Notes: generated by a model not told the origin, from the letters alone. Positions 3,278 to 10,921 are shown, counted from the first letter of the stretch. The stretch is DNA of 58,469 nucleotides from Clostridia bacterium (GCA_003551215.1 PUMD01000031.1:1-58469), one strand, 5' to 3'. Numbers and translations are program-made.

Positions 3278-4765
3278 GTGAGTTTCTCTAGCACAGGATC
3301 AAGTCAGCCTGAGGCCGGGCAGCGGGCAGCCGTGCTGGGCCTGGGGGTAAGCAACCGCGCACTGGCCGGTTACCTGCTGGATGTGGGGCTTGAGGTGTGG
3401 GTGTACGACCAGCAGGCCTCCAGGCATCTTGGCGCTCGCTGGACTGAGATTGCTGACCGAGTAAAAGAATCTGCTTTTGGTGAACAGTATCTTGATGAGT
3501 TCTCACAAGACAGCCGGGATTTTGGTTTCGACTGGGTGTTTGCCACCCCAGGTATGCCCAAAGACCTCCCTCAGATAAGGCAAGCCAGACGCCAGGGGGC
3601 GAACATATCCAGCGAGCTTGCTCTGTTTATGCAGCAGTGCCCGGCCATAATGGTGGGGATAACTGGCAGCTCTGGAAAAACCACGACTACTGCCATGGTG
3701 GGAGATATGCTGCGGGCCGGATTGGACACCAGGGTGTGGGTGGGAGGCAACATAGGGACCACTCTGATCGACCGTCTTGCGGACATATCCCCCGACGATG
3801 TGGTGGTGCTGGAGATATCGAGTTTTCAGCTGGAGCTGGCCACCAGGACCACTGAATACGGCGCTATCCTGAACATAAGCCCCAACCATCTGGATGTCCA
3901 CGGGGACATGGACAGCTACGTGCAGGCCAAAAGCCGACTGCTGATCTGCCAGCCGCCCGGAAGTCTTGCTGTGCTTAACTGGGATTGTGAGCGTACCAGA
4001 CAGCTGTCGTCTCTGGCCCGGGGACGGCTCGCGTACTATTCCATGCAACAGGCTCCTGAATCCTGGGACTCCAGCAGGCCGGGGGAGCTGGCGGGATGGC
4101 AACAGGACGGACATTTGTGGGTGAAACGAAACGGCGAGGTGGTGCGTCTTTGCTCCTGCAGGGATATTCCCCTGCGCGGTCCTCATAATGTGGCAAACAC
4201 TTTGATAGCCGGGCTGGTGAGCTCGGCAGTCGGAGGAAGCATCGAGGGCATGCGGGAGGCTATTTCTGCTTTTTGTGCTGTTCCCCACCGTCTCGAAGAG
4301 GTAACCTGTCGCGACGGTGTTCTTTTCATAAATGATTCCATAGCCACTTCTCCGGACCGCACAGCTGCCGCCCTGGACAGCTTCGACCGCCCCTTGATAT
4401 TGATTATGGGCGGGTACGACAAGGGGATATCATTTGCAGGGCTGGCTGAGAAGCTGGTAAAAGATGCTGCCCATGAGCAGATCAGGGCAGTTGTTCTCAC
4501 AGGAGCAACCTCTTGTGAAATACAAAAGAACCTGTTAGATGCGGCATCTAAGGCAGACGGTTTCAGCTGGGTCGAGGAAGAAAATCCAGAAACGAATTCG
4601 GCGGTGCTGCGCGTTGAATCCGAGTTCGAAAGGGCAGTACGGCTGGCAGGTGACCTTGCCCGCAGAGGCGATATCGTGCTGCTTTCTCCCGCCTGTGCCA
4701 GCTTTGATCAGTTTGATAATTTTATCACAAGAGGACGCAACTTCCGCGATATAGTAACGGGCTGA
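3278..4765 (+). CDS. murD: UDP-N-acetylmuramoyl-L-alanine--D-glutamate ligase
   Basis: GLGVSN, GITGSSGKTTTT, GGNIG, LEISSFQL, NISPNHLD, HRLE, NDSIAT and LLSPACASFDQF motifs; the GTG start at 3278 follows GGAGAGAGG. Confidence 0.93.
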   Translation: MSFSSTGSSQPEAGQRAAVLGLGVSNRALAGYLLDVGLEVWVYDQQASRHLGARWTEIADRVKESAFGEQYLDEFSQDSRDFGFDWVFATPGMPKDLPQIRQARRQGANISSELALFMQQCPAIMVGITGSSGKTTTTAMVGDMLRAGLDTRVWVGGNIGTTLIDRLADISPDDVVVLEISSFQLELATRTTEYGAILNISPNHLDVHGDMDSYVQAKSRLLICQPPGSLAVLNWDCERTRQLSSLARGRLAYYSMQQAPESWDSSRPGELAGWQQDGHLWVKRNGEVVRLCSCRDIPLRGPHNVANTLIAGLVSSAVGGSIEGMREAISAFCAVPHRLEEVTCRDGVLFINDSIATSPDRTAAALDSFDRPLILIMGGYDKGISFAGLAEKLVKDAAHEQIRAVVLTGATSCEIQKNLLDAASKADGFSWVEEENPETNSAVLRVESEFERAVRLAGDLARRGDIVLLSPACASFDQFDNFITRGRNFRDIVTG

Positions 4766-4829
4766 CCTGACAGCCCGGGGCGACCAAGCAGTATTCGATG
4801 CCACTTCTTTACCCGTTCCATCCAACAAC

Positions 4830-4855
4830 AGGAAAAGTGTTTATAGAAGTAGAAT
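4830..4855 (+). promoter_or_regulatory. Putative sigma-H-type promoter of the GlmL-like operon
   Basis: AGGA(4830)-N18-GAAT(4852) matches the Firmicutes sigma-H consensus, about 90 nt upstream of the start at 4944. Confidence 0.4.
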
Positions 4856-4943
4856 ACAATAGTTGCCAGCTGCGTGAGTCGGCAGCTTCAAAAAGGACCC
4901 GGATGATGACTCAACCGGTCGCTTCCGTGGAGGTAGTTAATTC

Positions 4944-6743
4944 ATGCACAATGTCCAGCTTTTGGCACTCGACATAGGCAGCACGACAACCAAGGCCAGA
5001 CTGTTTTGTGTAGATGAGTCAGGAGGGAAGCTGATTGCCGCTGCCGATAGTCCAACAACCGTGGAAGCACCGGAAGAGGACGTAATGGTGGGGGTCATCA
5101 AAGCGGTTGAGTCGATGCAGAGGAAGGCGCCGGGGTCTTTGCTGACTGAGGATGGCGAGATTGCCCGCGGCCCGGATGCAGTAAAGATGCTGACTGCTTC
5201 CTCAAGTGCCGGAGGAGGGCTGCAGGTGCTGGTCACAGGCGTCTGGCGCAAGATGACGGCAGAAAGCGCCCAGAGGGCGGTTCTTGGTGCGGGAGGGGTG
5301 GTTCTTGACGTCCATCACGTCAATGACGGTCGACTATCATCAGAGCGGGTCAAACAGATTCGGGCTGCCAGACCGGATATGATACTGATGACCGGCGGGA
5401 CCGAGGGCGGACAGGTCAGTCAACTGGTAGCCATGGCGGAATGGCTAAGAAGCGCCGACCCACGTCCTCGCTACGGTGACCAGTCACGAATTCCGCTCCT
5501 TTATGCCGGCAACAGCCAGGCACTACCCCTGGTGAGAAAGGCTTTGCAGGACAGCGTCCAGCTGTACGTTTGCGAGAACGTAAGGCCCAAGCCCGGTGAG
5601 GAAAATCTCGAGCCGGTCCGGGACCGCATTCAGCAGTTGTTCATGGAACACGTGATGAGTCACGCTCCCGGATACACCGGGGTGTTGCAGAGGGTTGACG
5701 GTCCGATCCTGCCGACGCCGGGAGCCTTCGGAATCATGATAAAGCAGCTGGCTGAGAAGCTTCGGGCTGATGTGCTCGGGGTCGACATAGGCGGAGCCAC
5801 TACCGACATCTTTTCAGTGATTGGAGGCAAGCTGAACCGTACAGTCAGTGCCAGCCTGGGCATGAGCTACAGCATCTCAAACGTGATCTCGTCTGCTGGA
5901 GAGGAGAACATCGCCCGCTGGCTGCCTTTTGACGTATCCCCGGGTATGCTGCGGGAGTGGGCGGTCAGCAAGATGATAAGGCCCACCACGCTGCCGCAGA
6001 CGCCGTCTGACCTTCTGGTGGAGCATGCTGCAGCCCGGGAGGCGATCCGGCTGGCGCTGCAGCATCACCGCAGGCTGGTGGGTGAGCTCAAGGGGAAAAG
6101 GCGCCCACCTGTTGCCGGCTTACTGAAGGAGCCAACAGCTAGGTCAGAGTTGAGCCTGCCGGATGTGGAGGCAATCATCGCAAGCGGGGGTGTTCTGTCG
6201 CACGCGGGAGATGCACGGAGAGCAATGGGAATGGTGGTTGATGCTCTCTCGCCGGAGGGGCTGACCCGTGTGCTGCTGGACCGGGGGTTCATGATGCCTC
6301 ACCTGGGTGCAATAGCGGACATGGATGAAGATGCCGCTTTGAAGCTGGTCCCACAGGTTCTGGTCAGTGCTGGCTGGTGTCTTTCCCCGACCAAAAATGA
6401 CGCCGCCCCGGGCGAAGTACTGGGAGACGTTCATCTGAGGGGAGAGGGATTTTCCGTCTGCCAGCCGGTTCGCTGCGGTGAGATGAGCATGGTGCAGCTG
6501 CCGTATGGGGTAGTTATCGAGGTCAGCATTGAAGATGGTTCCCGGGTTGACTGGGGGATTCGCGAAGCCCAAGCCACATTGGAATCGCGGAATAAGGGAG
6601 AAGTCCTGCTGCTTGACGGCAGAAAACGGCCGGTGGGAGAGCATATGGGTAACCCACCCCGTCCCGTGCAGCAGGTGAGCCCCTTTGGCTACAATGCAGA
6701 GGTTCTCGAGAACCTGCGGACGGGAGGGGTTTGGGGTGAGTAG
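4944..6743 (+). CDS. Glutamate mutase L (GlmL/MutL)-like ASKHA-fold ATPase, long form
   Basis: Phosphate-1 DIGSTTTK, SSSAGGGL, RPDMILMTGGTEGG, YAGN, ENVRP, PTPGA, phosphate-2 GVDIGGATTDIFS and RTVSASLGMSYS motifs; RBS GGAGGT. Confidence 0.85.
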   Translation: MHNVQLLALDIGSTTTKARLFCVDESGGKLIAAADSPTTVEAPEEDVMVGVIKAVESMQRKAPGSLLTEDGEIARGPDAVKMLTASSSAGGGLQVLVTGVWRKMTAESAQRAVLGAGGVVLDVHHVNDGRLSSERVKQIRAARPDMILMTGGTEGGQVSQLVAMAEWLRSADPRPRYGDQSRIPLLYAGNSQALPLVRKALQDSVQLYVCENVRPKPGEENLEPVRDRIQQLFMEHVMSHAPGYTGVLQRVDGPILPTPGAFGIMIKQLAEKLRADVLGVDIGGATTDIFSVIGGKLNRTVSASLGMSYSISNVISSAGEENIARWLPFDVSPGMLREWAVSKMIRPTTLPQTPSDLLVEHAAAREAIRLALQHHRRLVGELKGKRRPPVAGLLKEPTARSELSLPDVEAIIASGGVLSHAGDARRAMGMVVDALSPEGLTRVLLDRGFMMPHLGAIADMDEDAALKLVPQVLVSAGWCLSPTKNDAAPGEVLGDVHLRGEGFSVCQPVRCGEMSMVQLPYGVVIEVSIEDGSRVDWGIREAQATLESRNKGEVLLLDGRKRPVGEHMGNPPRPVQQVSPFGYNAEVLENLRTGGVWGE

Positions 6744-8088
6744 GACTGCGGAGCAGCACTGGAGGTTGCAGCAGAATGTGACTCTGAGGAGGCGTCGTGC
6801 TGCATCTCTTCCCGGACGGGTAATGGTGCAGGAAGGTGACCTGGTGGAGGCTGGTCAGGAGATAGTCCGCGTGCGTGAGATGTTCAGCGTGCCGCACCTG
6901 GTCAATGTTGCCCGTAGAGTCGAAGAAAGACCGTCCCGCCTAAGCCAGGAAGACTACAATGTCAAAGAGGGGGATCGGGTGAGGGCCGGCGAAACGCTGC
7001 TGGAAGTGAAACGTTCAACCCTGATGGTTTTCCGCAGCATAAGGCGGGCCAAATCTCCCGTAGCCGGTGTGGTAGAGTCCATATATCGGGAGCTGGGTCT
7101 GGTTCTGATCCGGGAAGACAGAAAGCAGGAGACAGCATCGGTCACGCTGGACATAGCAGAAAGGATAGGCTGTTCTGGTGACGACATCACCGACTATCTG
7201 CGAGTAGAGGAAGGTGAGGAGGTGCAGCAGGGACAAATCATCGCTGTCGATCAGGGAGATGTGAGAAGATCTGTTCTCGCTCCTTACGACGGGCAAATTG
7301 GCCGCATCGACCGTCTCAAGGGTGCAGTCGTGCTGCAGCGAAGTGTAACGGGGTTTTCTGTTGATGCTTTTGTGCCCGGTCGTGTTGCTGAAGTGATTCC
7401 CAAAAGAGGTGCGGTAATCGAGTCGCAGATGAATCGCATCTGCGGAATCTACGGTATAGGGGGGGAATGCAGGGGAACGCTGCGGGTGCTCGGTCACGGC
7501 AGTATCGCGTCCAGACTCGACAAATCAATGCATGGTCTGGTGCTGGTGACGGAAGACATAGTAACTGCGGATTTCATCTTTGAGGCCCGGCAGTGCGGAG
7601 TCACGGCTATCATAGCCGCAGGCATGAGAGTAGATTGCCTGTACGATGTGGCCGGCGGTACTCCGGATGTCACCATAGACAGCCCGCACCTGCCTGGCCC
7701 CACAGTGGTACTGACCGAGGGTTTTGGAGAACAACTCAGGATGGACGGCAGGATTTATGCCATGCTCTCGAAATTTGATGGAGAGCAAGCATATCTTGAT
7801 GGTACCACGCAGATCAGGGCTGGAGTGGTAAGACCGGAAATCCTTCTGCCCGCTGAGGACGATTGCACTGGGGAAGGTGCCCTCCGCAAAGCACAGGGAG
7901 AGTTGAAGTCAGGAGACAGGGTGGTTGTTCTTCGTGGTCCTCAGTTCATGCGCAGAGGGATCATCATCAGGGTGTTGCACCGGAACGTTCAGCTGGGCTT
8001 CGGAATATCCGGCCCTGCCGCCAGGGTTCGGCTTGATGGCGGAGGAGAGGTGGTTGCACTGCAAGCCAACCTGGAGCGCGAGGTATGA
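6736..8088 (+). CDS. Hypothetical partner of the GlmL-like ATPase with repeated biotinyl/lipoyl-like barrel-sandwich motifs and a C-terminal KOW-like motif
   Basis: Repeats VQEGDLVEAGQEI, VKEGDRVRAGETL and VEEGEEVQQGQII, with SPVAGVV, APYDGQI and AFVPGRV; also LTEGFG, GTTQIRAGVVRPEI and the KOW-like GDRVVVLRGP. The GTG start overlaps the end of the upstream gene. Confidence 0.8.
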   Translation: MSRTAEQHWRLQQNVTLRRRRAASLPGRVMVQEGDLVEAGQEIVRVREMFSVPHLVNVARRVEERPSRLSQEDYNVKEGDRVRAGETLLEVKRSTLMVFRSIRRAKSPVAGVVESIYRELGLVLIREDRKQETASVTLDIAERIGCSGDDITDYLRVEEGEEVQQGQIIAVDQGDVRRSVLAPYDGQIGRIDRLKGAVVLQRSVTGFSVDAFVPGRVAEVIPKRGAVIESQMNRICGIYGIGGECRGTLRVLGHGSIASRLDKSMHGLVLVTEDIVTADFIFEARQCGVTAIIAAGMRVDCLYDVAGGTPDVTIDSPHLPGPTVVLTEGFGEQLRMDGRIYAMLSKFDGEQAYLDGTTQIRAGVVRPEILLPAEDDCTGEGALRKAQGELKSGDRVVVLRGPQFMRRGIIIRVLHRNVQLGFGISGPAARVRLDGGGEVVALQANLEREV

Positions 8089-8097
8089 ACGCCCGGC

Positions 8098-8730
8098 TCA
8101 ATCTCCCGGCAGGTGATCCGTGTAATTGAGAGAAGAAATCTGCCACCCGCGGGAAGTCAGTCTGACCACACTCAGTGACCCGTTGGCAATGTCCATTCGC
8201 CATTTCTCCTTCAGCGGCGCAGATAAGATCCAGCTCAGAAGAGACTTGATTGTTCCTCCGTGACTCACCACAACAACCGACTGGTTGGGGTGACGACGGG
8301 CTATATGCCTCAGACCATCTGCGGCCCGCTTCTGCACAGCGGTGGTGGGTTCGCCTCCCGGCGGGAGGCATTCTCTTCCGCTGGTGCGTTCCTGGTGGTA
8401 GTCGGGAAGCCTCTCAGCAGCTTCCTCCCAGGTGAGACCGGCCAGTTTGCCCAGGTCAACCTCAAGCCAACGCTCATCCCGTACAAGTGGTATTTCGAGC
8501 CTGCTTGCGGCAGGGCGGGCAGTATCCAGTGCTCGTGACAGCGGACTGCTGTATATGCATACAGGATTCCAGCGATGCAATGCAGAAGCCAGGGACCGTG
8601 CCTGGCTGACTCCTTGCTCGTCAAGAGGTACATCCTTCTGTCCCATAAAGCGGCCGGATGCGTTAAAATCTGTGCGTCCGTGGCGAATCAGCAGTATCGT
8701 GATCAACTGGTTTTGGCGTTCTTCGCTCAT
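8098..8730 (-). CDS. Histidine phosphatase (phosphoglycerate mutase / CobC / PhoE family)
   Basis: LIRHGRT, YSSPLSRA, EVDLG and VVSHGG motifs. Confidence 0.92.
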   Translation of the reverse strand: MSEERQNQLITILLIRHGRTDFNASGRFMGQKDVPLDEQGVSQARSLASALHRWNPVCIYSSPLSRALDTARPAASRLEIPLVRDERWLEVDLGKLAGLTWEEAAERLPDYHQERTSGRECLPPGGEPTTAVQKRAADGLRHIARRHPNQSVVVVSHGGTIKSLLSWILSAPLKEKWRMDIANGSLSVVRLTSRGWQISSLNYTDHLPGD

Positions 8731-9437
8731 GCAGTACCCCTTTTTGTGTATTTGGTTCCGCACAGCCTGAGACGAAAGCCGGCGTTCCAGACAGATGACA
8801 AAAACATGGAAATCACCTGAAAAACATGACGCATGGGCCCGATCTGAGTAGCCAGATGTCGGCTGCCTGACCCCAGGTTGCTGGACAATGTCCTCCAGGT
8901 TCGCTTCATCGAAAGCCTGATGCTGCTGATGTGAGATGTTTTTTATCCGTCAGCCCGTTGGGTTGTTCCTCGCTGTGAGTCCTGTATGGCCTTGTCATTT
9001 ATCTCTTCATCTTCTGTCAGAAAGGTTTACCGACAAAGCGCACAGTGTTGGATTGTGCCTACCGCCAGAGTGAGTCTAGAGGGCAACGAGAGGGCCACAA
9101 CGAAACAGCCCGCTGAATGCTGCAGACGGAGGAACAACTGGTCGTTGGTCTATGCAGTGTGATATGTGTGCTGCCCCTGCCCTTGTTCTCCTTTTTGATC
9201 TTATGTTTTCGGTGTTCGAAATATGGATTTGGCCAAGAGTATGATCTGGCAGGCCATTTATGAACATATCTTTTGCGAAACAGTGCGGTTTTCCTCCCCT
9301 GCTGCATGCTGTAAGGAGGAGTCTGCAGGCTCCTGCAAGAAGTGAAGTTTGCAAAAGGAAGGGAAATCCTTTATGGTGACATGTTTGACAATCGGACAGA
9401 CAGCTGTCAAAATACAGGATTCGGGAGGCGAAATCAA

Positions 9438-10121
9438 TTGGAGCTGACCAGAACTGGCCTGCAGGACATTGCCCAGGAACTGAAGAATCATTACAATCAG
9501 GTGTCCGTTTACCGGGAAGATCCCCCAGCATCTGCCTTGCCTGACAGCGTCCTGGGTGTGCTTGTCAGCACAGTTTTGTCGCAGGCCAGCAATGACATTC
9601 GCACAAAGCAAATATATCTGCAGCTGCGCGCTCAATATCCCGCCTGGGAGCAGCTCGCAGATGAGGATGAGGCAGAGATCAGGCAGGTGCTCAAAAAAGG
9701 AGGCCTGTCCAGACAGAAGGCCGGCTACATCAAGGAAATTCTGCGGAGACTGAAAGACCGCTTCGGGGAATACTCGCTGGATGTTTTGCAGGATTGGGAT
9801 GATGAAGGGTGCTACAGCTACCTGACTGACCTTCCCGGAGTGGGACCTAAGACTGCTGCCTGCGTAATGCTCTTTGGTCTTGGACGTGATGTGTTGCCGG
9901 TGGATACTCATGTGGCGAGGATAAGCCGTAGGCTCGGTCTGGTAAGCGAAGGGGCAGCCCCGCAGCAGATTCAAAAGGAGCTGGCAGACTTCGTTCCCTG
10001 TGGATGGAGCCTGTCGCTTCACCTCGATATGCTTCACCACGGACGCAGCGTGTGCACAGCAATGAACCCAATGTGCGAGGAGTGTATCCTGGAGAGATGG
10101 TGCGACAAGCAGGGAGTCTGA
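9438..10121 (+). CDS. nth: Endonuclease III (HhH-GPD DNA glycosylase with a 4Fe-4S cluster)
   Basis: VLSQ, LPGVGPKTA (HhH), PVDTHV and the C-X6-C-X2-C-X5-C motif CTAMNPMCEECILERWC; the TTG start follows GGAGG. Confidence 0.85.
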   Translation: MELTRTGLQDIAQELKNHYNQVSVYREDPPASALPDSVLGVLVSTVLSQASNDIRTKQIYLQLRAQYPAWEQLADEDEAEIRQVLKKGGLSRQKAGYIKEILRRLKDRFGEYSLDVLQDWDDEGCYSYLTDLPGVGPKTAACVMLFGLGRDVLPVDTHVARISRRLGLVSEGAAPQQIQKELADFVPCGWSLSLHLDMLHHGRSVCTAMNPMCEECILERWCDKQGV

Positions 10122-10156
10122 GGCCTGCGATGCGTTCCCTAGGAGGTGACGGCCTT

Positions 10157-10921
10157 GTGAAACACAGCGCAATAAATCGTCAGCCAAGGGAAATCCAAGG
10201 GGAGCCAGAAAAGCTTCTGCTTGAGTATGCCCGAAGTGAAGACCCCGATCTCAAACGCGAAATAGCCAGCCATTACCAGGGGCTGGTGGTACATCTGGCC
10301 AAGGGATTTCTCGGTCGAGGTGAGGCCCTCGAAGATCTGATTCAGCAGGGTTACATCGGGCTTCTTAAGGCCATCGAGCGCTTCGATCCCGATCGCGGCG
10401 TGAAATTTACGACCTACGCCACACCCACAATTAACGGTGAGATCCGCCGCTATTTCAGAGACAAAGGCTGGGATCTGCACGTTCCTCGCGGTGTTAAGGA
10501 ACGGCAGTTAAGAGTCAAAGCTGCAAAAGAGAAGCTGATGGGACTCGGGGAGACAGATCCGAGTGCAGCTCAGATCGCCGAATATCTGCAGGAAGAACAG
10601 GGCGACGTTGAGAAGGCGCTCCTGGCTCGACGTGCCTACAACTCCTATTCCCTTCACAGTACTCTTTGGGATCAGGAAAACCTTCAACTCATGGAGGTAG
10701 TCGGGCAGGATGATGATGGCTACGAGCAGGTTATGAACTGTCAGGATATCGCTCAGGCTATAAGGCAGCTGCCCGAGCGTGAGCAGAAGATAGTCCAGTG
10801 GCGGTTTTTCGGCGATCTGACACAAAAAGAAGTTGGAGAGCGACTGGGTATATCTCAGATGCACGTAAGCAGACTTGAACGTCGGGCCCTCAAGACCATG
10901 CGAAAGCAGATGGTAGCCTAG
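10157..10921 (+). CDS. SigB/SigF/SigG family RNA polymerase sigma factor (SigB-like)
   Basis: DLIQQGYIGLLKAIERFDP, FTTYATPTINGEIRRYFRDKGW and region 4 LTQKEVGERLGISQMHVSRLE; the GTG start follows AGGAGGTG. Confidence 0.92.
   Translation: MKHSAINRQPREIQGEPEKLLLEYARSEDPDLKREIASHYQGLVVHLAKGFLGRGEALEDLIQQGYIGLLKAIERFDPDRGVKFTTYATPTINGEIRRYFRDKGWDLHVPRGVKERQLRVKAAKEKLMGLGETDPSAAQIAEYLQEEQGDVEKALLARRAYNSYSLHSTLWDQENLQLMEVVGQDDDGYEQVMNCQDIAQAIRQLPEREQKIVQWRFFGDLTQKEVGERLGISQMHVSRLERRALKTMRKQMVA

Follow-up and report, generated by a model that had tools for sequence, protein, structure and literature searches.

The closest described relatives of the two-protein system considered here are GlmL/MutL and Or-4, proteins of the Pfam family MutL (PF13941) with an actin-type fold and nucleotide-binding motifs. 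A table of PMC11633334 uses 'GlmL-related ornithine degradation protein' as an annotation. The system in question is a pair of overlapping genes at positions 4944 to 8088 of a 58,469-nt stretch of DNA from Clostridia bacterium (GCA_003551215.1, PUMD01000031.1:1-58469), which is contig C76 of the assembly G000 and is called the window below. The first gene encodes a long-form ATPase of the MutL family, and the second encodes a partner protein made of hybrid-motif, swiveling and KOW/SH3-like domains. Compared to GlmL and Or-4, the long forms are about 125-190 amino acids (aa) longer, have a C-terminal beta domain and are always accompanied by the partner. Of 12 short forms examined, 7 neighbor OraE or another B12-binding protein, but the long pair has no B12 mutase next to it. 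The observations described below make it rather probable that the pair represents an uncharacterized, co-evolving ATPase-adaptor module, which is not a cobalamin reactivase and which probably works together with a membrane complex containing a DUF6754 protein.

Several other ATPase systems resemble the pair in part. Hydantoinase A, the beta subunits of acetone and acetophenone carboxylases and the alpha subunit of caprolactamase likewise belong to two-subunit ATP-dependent systems and give the best Foldseek matches of the ATPase, but the template modeling (TM) scores are about 0.3, and the partner is unrelated to Hydantoinase B or AcxA. FtsA and PilM are the top folds found with VIA, and a subset of the relatives of the ATPase, called a-type, has an amphipathic basic C-terminal tail. 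Unlike FtsA and PilM, the ATPase has a flavodoxin-like insert and the C-terminal beta domain, and its neighborhoods contain no cell-division or pilus genes. In the diol dehydratase reactivase DdrA/DdrB and EutA, an ATP-dependent actin-fold ATPase works together with a domain of the swiveling type and another subunit. In the present pair, the swivel is part of a separate protein, together with the KOW and hybrid-motif domains. Genes for a dehydratase or lyase are not found nearby, and no DdrA structure is among the listed Foldseek and VIA matches of either protein. The partner itself resembles known proteins part by part, namely the hybrid domain of RnfC/NqrA (Z 8.3), the swivel of Enzyme I and rifampin phosphotransferase (Z 9.6) and the KOW domain of NusG/Spt5 (Z 8.2), but it has neither the flavin or Fe-S domains of RnfC, nor a phospho-histidine, nor an acceptor lysine.

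The features of the locus, in positions of the window, are as follows:

4830..4856, + strand: sigma-H-like promoter-like match (AGGAAAAG ... GAATA), 88 nt 5' of the ATG, found by a pattern scan
4929..4933, + strand: putative ribosome-binding site GGAGG of the ATPase gene, 10 nt 5' of ATG 4944, read from the sequence
4944..6743, + strand: ATPase gene (P0001), a long-form MutL/GlmL-family ASKHA protein of 599 aa, from the open reading frame (ORF) and the Pfam MutL match
4962..6356, + strand: MutL (PF13941) domain with the nucleotide-binding motifs and the flavodoxin-like insert, from the coordinates of the family match
6363..6740, + strand: C-terminal beta-rich extension specific to the long form, residues ~474-599, from alignment A4; seven beta strands in the model
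6722..6729, + strand: putative ribosome-binding site GGGAGGGG of the partner gene, read from the sequence, within the 3' end of the ATPase gene
6736..8088, + strand: partner gene (P0003), an ORF of 450 aa from GTG 6736, the 450-aa form being the one on record
6766..7365, + strand: hybrid-motif (barrel-sandwich) beta domains, residues ~11-210, from Pfam NQRA_N, Biotin_lipoyl and RnfC_N and from VIA
7378..7860, + strand: swiveling beta/beta/alpha core, residues ~215-375, with GIYGIGGE, LTEGFG and GTTQIRAGVVRPE, from VIA and the alignment
7891..8085, + strand: KOW/SH3-like C-terminal domain, residues ~386-450, from PDB profiles, VIA and Pfam

The partner is encoded in a different frame from the ATPase, and its GTG at 6736 overlaps the ATPase stop codon TAG (6741-6743) by 8 nt; an in-frame TTG further upstream, at 6685, is an alternative start that would yield a protein of 467 aa. 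Because the Mur-ligase-family gene upstream stops at 4765 and the histidine phosphatase gene downstream, which ends at 8098, is convergent to the pair, the ATPase and partner genes form a bicistronic unit. The initial annotation described two overlapping genes that form a stand-alone unit. The overlap is as it stated, and the pair is indeed bicistronic locally. At the level of the family, however, the core copies are tied to a four-gene membrane cassette, and the genome contains five paralogous modules. The putative promoter is the single match of the pattern AGGAWWW-N11-15-GAATW across the window; at least one such match arose in 31 of 100 shuffles of the whole-window sequence. A scan of positions 4600-8500 for sigma-70 promoters found no site.

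The Pfam MutL profile matches residues 7-471 of the ATPase with an E-value of 1.1e-110 and 371 bits (cut-off 27), covering profile positions 2-448 of 450. The nucleotide-binding motifs DIGSTTTKA, DIGGATTD and SGGVLSHA are invariant or nearly so in the 33 aligned sequences of alignment A4. The motifs and the fold matches place the protein among the acetate and sugar kinases/Hsp70/actin (ASKHA) ATPases, with the two-lobed fold and the phosphate-1, phosphate-2 and adenosine motifs. The AlphaFold2 (AF2) model has an actin-type fold (predicted local distance difference test, pLDDT, 85.6; predicted TM-score 0.84). Its VIA matches include FtsA (Z 13.8 and 13.4), PilM (Z 12.1 and 11.8), EutJ (Z 12.4), type III pantothenate kinase (Z 12.2) and activators of the BcrAD type (Z 12.2-12.8). 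Residues ~90-240 form the flavodoxin-like insert, which matches flavodoxin/CheY-like folds with Z of about 10-11. The C-terminal extension of ~125 aa is kept in all long forms of alignment A4 and is missing in its canonical short Or-4 row. No Pfam family was found for residues ~474-599, and a search of PDB sequences with the ATPase gave no match. The length of the ORF, the end of the Pfam match at residue 471 and the extension beyond it agree with the earlier description of a 599-aa ATPase with a C-terminal extension.

The partner appears to be built only of mobile-type domains. Its N-terminal part contains the repeats VQEGDLVEAG, VKEGDRVRAG and VEEGEEVQQG, with the consensus V-x-E-G-D/E-x-V-x-x-G, and matches the Pfam hybrid-motif families NQRA_N (2.9e-11), Biotin_lipoyl (PF00364, 2.2e-10) and RnfC_N (1.6e-8). 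Residues 51-130 resemble BCCP/HlyD lipoyl-like domains (VIA Z 7.3-7.8), and residues 133-205 resemble the N-terminal domains of RnfC/NqrA (Z 8.3, root-mean-square deviation, rmsd, 2.2). A Foldseek search with the model (pLDDT 85.5) matched hybrid inserts of the RNA polymerase beta' subunit. The invariant or nearly invariant columns of an alignment of 43 partner sequences fall in GIFGIGGE, TEGFG and G-x-TQIRAG-x-x-RPE, all of them in the swiveling core. Residues 232-374 of this core match Enzyme I (2wqd) with a VIA Z of 9.6 and rmsd of 2.6 over 106 aligned residues. Rifampin phosphotransferase (5hv1, Z 9.3), RraA (3c8o, Z 9.2), the small subunit of aconitase X (Z 8.0) and the C-terminal domain of pyruvate kinase (2e28, Z 7.5) are also matched, although Z under about 8 can arise from a common arrangement. 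The fold is thus that of the mobile (swivel) domain of phosphoenolpyruvate (PEP)-utilizing enzymes, although no phospho-accepting histidine is found among the conserved columns of the 43 sequences, and Pfam PEP-utilizers matched no member of the partner family among the 25 families listed at E <= 1.

The C-terminal tail of the partner matches PDB profiles of NusG/Spt5 with E-values of 2e-4 to 1e-2, and the KOW domains of Spt5/NusG with VIA Z of 8.0-8.2 (rmsd 1.3-2.5). Pfam KOW is found in 15 of 43 partner-family members at E <= 1, with a best E-value of 4.3e-5. The tail is therefore KOW/SH3-like as judged by fold and profile. No PDB entry matched the full domain order of the partner in profile, Foldseek or VIA searches. 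The TM-scores of the whole model in Foldseek are low (about 0.11) because the model has several domains. All named homologs of the partner are called 'hypothetical protein', as are the ESM Atlas clusters. Two other identities were considered and rejected. RnfC/NqrA was rejected since the N-terminal hybrid domain alone is matched (NCBIfam scores of 16-34 bits against cut-offs of 246-505), and the Rossmann-like NADH/FMN, SLBB and Fe-S domains are not. A likeness to the PA domain of ZNRF3 (TMt 0.34-0.40) was set aside in favor of the higher VIA scores of the swivel.

The initial annotation had foreseen most of this architecture from the sequence. Its LTEGFG/TQIRAG core is present as LTEGFG and TTQIRAG, and the KOW-like tail is found by profile, Pfam and fold. 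The missing biotin/lipoate lysine is confirmed by the 43-sequence alignment, in which no invariant or 90%-conserved column holds a lysine. All three of its VxEGDxVxxG repeats exist, but the third carries EGE in place of EGD. The Foldseek comparison that it proposed for the pair leads from the ATPase to carboxylase and hydantoinase subunits and from the partner to the polymerase inserts.

The long forms are separated from GlmL and Or-4 both by score and by phylogeny. The ATPase of the window scores under the cut-offs of all three NCBIfam models, namely GlmL NF040745 (215.3 against 475), Or-4 NF040744 (212.8 against 600) and glmL_fam TIGR01319 (135.8 against 204.05), and so do its paralogs on contig C88 of the same genome. 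In a maximum-likelihood tree, 25 long forms fall on one side of a branch with a Shimodaira-Hasegawa-like approximate likelihood-ratio support of 100, and 12 short and 2 giant forms fall on the other. The ATPase of the window groups with those of genomes G001 and G007.

The loci of the 12 short forms served as a control. Six are beside OraE, one is beside a 618-aa B12-binding protein with PrpF, and five are in housekeeping surroundings. Not one of the 12 contains a homolog of the partner. The five housekeeping loci (L127, L133, L134, L137 and L139, from G030, G003, G020, G013 and G006) hold a third kind of short MutL, of 462-482 aa, in a conserved context: Amidase_3, DUF5698/DUF2179 and sometimes glutamate racemase come before the MutL gene, and RNase PH and Ham1 come after it. 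As these 5 of 12 short forms are not beside a B12 enzyme, even the short forms are not all linked to mutases. The giant proteins of 1169-1265 aa carry a C-terminal MutL domain (L141 88-3597, L142 4-3801 and L143 26-3559, from G026, G038 and G030). One has a weak N-terminal B12-binding match, an Amidohydro_3 gene is next in two cases, and in the tree the giants are a long-branched pair among the short forms.

The source genome provides an internal control. Assembly G000 (2.83 Mb, 210 contigs, 92.6% complete) encodes five modules of ATPase and partner: that of the window on C76, a tandem of two on C88, a single module on C186, and one on C41 that is a single fused protein of 1017 aa. Its sixth MutL gene is a canonical short form without a partner, whose two parts are at the ends of contigs C72 and C97 and which belongs to a cluster with the order ord-ortA-ortB-oraS-oraE-MutL-racemase. 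The search of the genome for mutase genes, as proposed in the initial annotation, thus did find oraS and oraE, but with their own canonical GlmL-type gene adjacent and no partner, so that the long forms are extra. The ornithine-fermentation cluster is complete, consisting of 2,4-diaminopentanoate dehydrogenase, OrtA, an OrtB-like PALP enzyme, OraS, OraE, the short MutL/Or-4 and a racemase of the alanine-racemase fold. It occupies the end of C72 (L017 4203-9671) and the start of C97 (L016 2-2239), which are therefore probably adjacent contigs.

A scan of the genome with PF02310 found three places, none of them on the contig of the window. Among its further B12-related genes, G000 encodes a radical-SAM protein with a B12-binding domain and an ORF of 547 aa that has weak matches to B12-binding and GlmE-like proteins; no member of the methylmalonyl-CoA-mutase family was found in this genome. 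The 547-aa ORF (C157, L117 178-1821, - strand) adjoins a gene of the octopine-dehydrogenase family. Its N-terminal B12-binding match is 27 bits, under the cut-off, and its C-terminal GlmE-like match is 27.6 bits, just over the cut-off, and it may be a distant fused B12 mutase.

The search for B12 enzymes near the pair was made with tblastn, using OraE, OraS, the 618-aa B12 protein, the GlmE-like ORF and the B12 radical-SAM protein as queries against 80 partner loci, eight further loci of the pair and the whole window. No homolog was found in these 982,407 bases, and the positive controls matched. The pair is thus not encoded beside OraE, OraS, MGM-like or GlmE-like homologs. Together with the PF02310 scan, the null result within the window agrees with the earlier statement that no B12 mutase is present there. 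In two complete chromosomes, the B12-binding-domain genes are far from the pair; positions were used since this domain is common and its counts in five pair-carrying genomes do not discriminate.

These results bear on the possibility that the pair is a cobalamin-enzyme reactivase that works in trans on OraSE or another B12 enzyme, in the manner of GlmL/MutL or diol dehydratase reactivase. The ATPase is a member of Pfam MutL, the genome has both oraS/oraE and the 547-aa ORF, and an actin-fold ATPase with a swivel resembles the alpha subunit of diol dehydratase reactivase. Such a role is nevertheless very unlikely. OraSE has a short GlmL-type gene of its own, the genome has five modules but no more than two candidates for a mutase client, and the tree places the long forms in a clade of their own. 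Moreover, neither the pair loci nor the two complete chromosomes place a B12 enzyme or B12-binding-domain gene near the pair, and the pair co-occurs with DUF6754 and not with mutases.

The two genes belong together far beyond the source genome. When 1.84 billion clusters of 50% identity are searched with a profile of the partner, 3920 representatives match with E <= 1e-3, of which 1367 reach E <= 1e-30, and the partner is encoded at no fewer than 588 loci of species-representative genomes. The locus counts given here refer to the best 80 of these at least 588 loci, which lean toward the short b-type partner because the narrower alignment A3 served as the query. The 80 loci come from Bacillota, Zixibacteria, WOR-3, Latescibacterota, Fermentibacteria, Ignavibacteria, Armatimonadota, Poribacteria, Bathyarchaeia, Culexarchaeia and others. 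A long MutL is upstream of the partner on the same strand in 55 of them, separated by a gap of at most 300 nt in 42 cases, by one intervening gene in 12 and by 1874 nt in one. In 19 of the 80, no long MutL is found within at least 1900 nt of the partner, and in the remaining 6 the flank is too short. For this unlinked class, a long MutL of 57-66% identity is found elsewhere in the genome in 4 of 5 genomes tested. The pair of the window, with its 8-nt overlap, is of the arrangement in which the partner directly follows a long-form ATPase. The linkage is thus conserved in many phyla.

The presence of the partner follows that of the long form almost perfectly. Among 41 genomes of the window's class, the partner is present in 25 of the 25 relatives with a long form; it is absent in 15 of the 16 without one, and the remaining one gives a weak match. 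Within these related genomes, the distribution of the two proteins agrees with their association. In addition, the two proteins are repeatedly fused, always with the ATPase first: on C41 of G000, in G007 (where the fusion is sister to that of G000 in the tree), in G039, and in the b-type database proteins P0078 and P0167. The distinct clade, scores below the cut-offs, near-perfect co-occurrence, repeated fusion and absence of B12 neighbors together argue for the separate two-protein ATP-dependent system, with a client other than a mutase, that was postulated from the sequence.

These observations suggest that the ATPase and the partner are probably physically associated. A prediction of their complex gave a score of 0.60, compared to 0.00 for the best control. 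Of 157 solved complexes, 116 reach the mark used in this prediction, as do 2 of the 215 mismatched pairs; at scores of 0.60 or lower, it is reached by only 18 of the 157 solved complexes and by both of the passing mismatches. At least 61% of contacts are common to the runs, and the pLDDT of the partner is at least 79. The complex prediction thus gives an interaction weak support, and its score is in the range of the passing mismatches.

A comparison with an orthologous pair from the same genus, in which the two proteins have 56% and 50% identity, shows that the pair is kept while the flanks are different. The window-type pair thus moves as a unit and evolves fast. Conservation in the family is very high, with 54-74% identity from Bacillota to Bathyarchaeia. 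The b-type ATPases of Bathyarchaeia/Culexarchaeia at L030, L045 and L079 have 54-58% identity over ~610 residues with that of the source genome (L013 12915-14792), and this unusually high identity between domains of life suggests either inter-domain transfer or very strong constraint. The pair of the window is best read as a fast-evolving, divergent satellite copy of a large family that extends across Bacteria and Archaea.

The mobility of the window-type pair between non-syntenic contexts could also be that of an anti-phage defense or mobile-element cassette, as the system has multiple genes, is uncharacterized and paralogous, and is distributed patchily across phyla. The neighbors of the pairs, however, are housekeeping genes, conservation across the domains of life is very high, and Pfam scans of the flanks found no integrase, transposase or nuclease, so that an origin of this kind is hardly credible.

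Clustering of the ORFs of the 80 loci gives the recurrent gene order c8-c2-ATPase-partner-DUF6754-c5-c4-c6, in which the last four genes form the membrane cassette. Of the 80 loci, 25 have a DUF6754 gene in their flanks. The cassette of the source genome is situated on C88, where the tandem a and b pairs begin a short distance downstream of it. Hydropathy indicates that the cassette proteins are membrane proteins: c5 and c6 are polytopic, DUF6754 has a central region between two outer membrane segments, and c4 has a domain of ~210 aa between N- and C-terminal anchors. DUF6754 is present in 21 of the 41 genomes of the window's class, all of which are among the 26 that have the partner, and it is found in none of the 15 partner-negative genomes. 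All 14 control genomes lack DUF6754. In a sample of 51 genomes from one archaeal class, 11 have the partner and 11 have DUF6754, with both present in 10. The cassette strictly consists of four genes and is sometimes present in multiple copies, with 11 in G022 and 9-10 in two archaeal genomes. A PDB sequence search with DUF6754 and c4 gave no match, NCBIfam has no name for any of the accessory proteins, no named ESM Atlas relative was found for c4, and none of the known transporter families could be assigned to the four cassette proteins.

The a-type ATPases, one of the ATPase types of the core copies, have an acidic stretch near the C terminus and, after it, a basic amphipathic tail (...KKGGFLSRLFRR, ...GEKKGGFLSRLFRR). 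All four a-type rows of alignment A4 (L013 9159-11075, L113 8546-10498, L064 251-2182 and L072 273-2168) have this tail, and none of its b-type, window-type or other rows does. The tail resembles the membrane-targeting helices of MinD and FtsA and looks like such a helix itself. The ATPase might thus be a membrane-associated actin-like scaffold or cytomotive protein similar to FtsA or PilM, which organizes a membrane complex with the partner as an adaptor. In addition to the tail, the two top VIA folds and the very high conservation from Bacillota to Bathyarchaeia would fit a scaffold. However, the flavodoxin-like insert occupies the position of the 1C domain of FtsA, the fold matches are middling (rmsd 5-7 Å), and the ATPase of the window is itself devoid of the tail. 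It is therefore doubtful that the protein acts in this way.

The genes around the cassette, and the folds closest to the ATPase in Foldseek, bring an enzyme to mind. An Amidohydro_1/3 or M20 peptidase gene is found within three ORFs of the cassette in a raw count of 8 of 17 loci, GntR regulators are found at 3 of the 17, and creatininase, PALP enzymes and others are also near. The top Foldseek matches of the ATPase model are the core of acetophenone carboxylase (5l9w_B, E 1.4e-10) and N-methylhydantoinase (9h03_A, 9.6e-10), and further matches are the beta subunit of acetone carboxylase (5svc_B, 5m45_B) and caprolactamase (6yra_A). Pfam Hydantoinase_A (PF01968) and Hydant_A_N also match weakly. 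It could thus be proposed that the pair is an enzyme of the hydantoinase/oxoprolinase/acetone-carboxylase type. The ATPase would then phosphorylate or otherwise activate a small substrate (an amide, lactam or ketone), and the partner would act as the other subunit, with its swivel carrying or shielding the intermediate as swiveling domains do in the intermediate-shuttling Enzyme I and rifampin phosphotransferase, and the cassette would merely import the substrate. The structural matches to the carboxylase and hydantoinase subunits, with E-values from 1.4e-10 to 2e-7, nonetheless have low TM-scores of 0.28-0.37, and Hydantoinase_A reaches 18.3 bits, short of its cut-off of 22.9. Pfam scans of the flanks found no catalytic subunit of the HyuB/AcxA or Hydantoinase_B type beside the pairs, and no His, Cys, Lys, Asp or Ser of the partner is invariant in the 43-sequence alignment. 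Furthermore, the hydrolase genes flank cassette copies that have no ATPase, whereas the pairs are linked to the cassette itself. An enzymatic role of the pair is therefore unlikely.

By combining these observations, it is possible to describe how the ATPase-adaptor module might work. The core copies, which are the two tandem pairs next to and co-occurring with the DUF6754 cassette, would form the cytoplasmic part of the machinery. ATP binding and hydrolysis in the ATPase would be transmitted through the swinging hybrid-motif, swiveling and KOW/SH3-like domains of the adaptor to the membrane complex, whose copy number and neighbors resemble, in genomic terms, those of a substrate-specific uptake module. 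The pair of the window, as a satellite, might then provide this machinery with an alternative motor or a regulatory module, or it might serve another client.

A bolder proposal, which we put forward tentatively, is that the long MutL proteins and their adaptors are the cytoplasmic motor of an unrecognized class of uptake transporter that is powered by an actin-fold ATPase and built on DUF6754-c5-c4-c6. The whole system can be compared to importers of the ATP-binding cassette (ABC) and energy-coupling factor (ECF) types, which likewise have two paralogous ATPase units, two polytopic proteins and one large domain between anchors, and whose membrane modules are likewise multi-copy and found in catabolic neighborhoods. 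Unlike these importers, the present system has an actin-fold ATPase and no P-loop ABC domain. If the proposal is correct, the transporter would have an ABC/ECF-like layout with two paralogous motors and exchangeable multi-copy membrane modules in amide/peptide catabolic operons, and it would be present in many uncultivated bacterial phyla, in Bathyarchaeia and in other archaea.

Several observations weigh against an ATPase-adaptor module that works with the membrane complex. The pair of the window has no membrane cassette beside it, and only one DUF6754 gene, on C88, was found in the 92.6%-complete source genome, compared to five ATPase modules, which fits a shared-motor model poorly. The ATPase is not adjacent to the partner in Armatimonadota, Poribacteria and part of WOR-3. 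The 43 partner sequences have no conserved Lys, His or Cys and thus nothing that would suggest group transfer or a chemical relay of energy. The predicted complex of the two proteins gives weak support to their binding. The tree results from a quick, midpoint-rooted search, the co-occurrence counts are drawn from related genomes and are not independent, and the hydrolase count at the cassettes comes without a comparison to the background rate. No actin-fold ATPase is known to power a transporter. In the literature searched, no paper mentions DUF6754, PF20539 or PF13941, and the papers found concern GlmL, ASKHA proteins and reactivases in general. The ATPase family is already known, but the long-form branch, the architecture of the partner and the link to DUF6754 appear in none of them. 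The new actin family reported in PMC12645912 is ParM-like FcmB and is unrelated to the long-form ATPase.

Some loci of the family have additional genes. In loci of the Ignavibacteria and Zixibacteria type, a 265-aa gene without a Pfam family is positioned between the ATPase and the partner, and ExbB/ExbD/TonB/TolB-like genes often follow (L027, L036, L049, L052, L053, L059, L067, L075, L078, L084 and L091). In several loci of the Fibrobacterota-Chlorobiota-Bacteroidota (FCB) group, genes for GcvH and two GcvP subunits are directly upstream of c8-c2-ATPase-partner, and a TonB-dependent receptor is downstream of the cassette (L022, L026, L037, L055, L060, L061, L080 and L097). Elsewhere in the window, an ORF for an HhH-GPD glycosylase (9342-10121, + strand) overlaps a sigma-70-family ORF (10004-10921, + strand) by ~118 nt when the first start codons are taken, and the true start of the latter is probably further downstream.

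Proteins of PF13941 are routinely annotated as accessories of glutamate mutase or ornithine degradation, and the family contains a large separate branch that is unrelated to B12 mutases by position or co-occurrence. The finding at least corrects a systematic mis-annotation. It also defines a multi-protein system in lineages that dominate anoxic sediments, such as Zixibacteria, WOR-3, Latescibacterota, Bathyarchaeia and many Bacillota. If the link to the membrane cassette is one of energy coupling, the ATPase and its adaptor would represent a new way of powering a membrane process.

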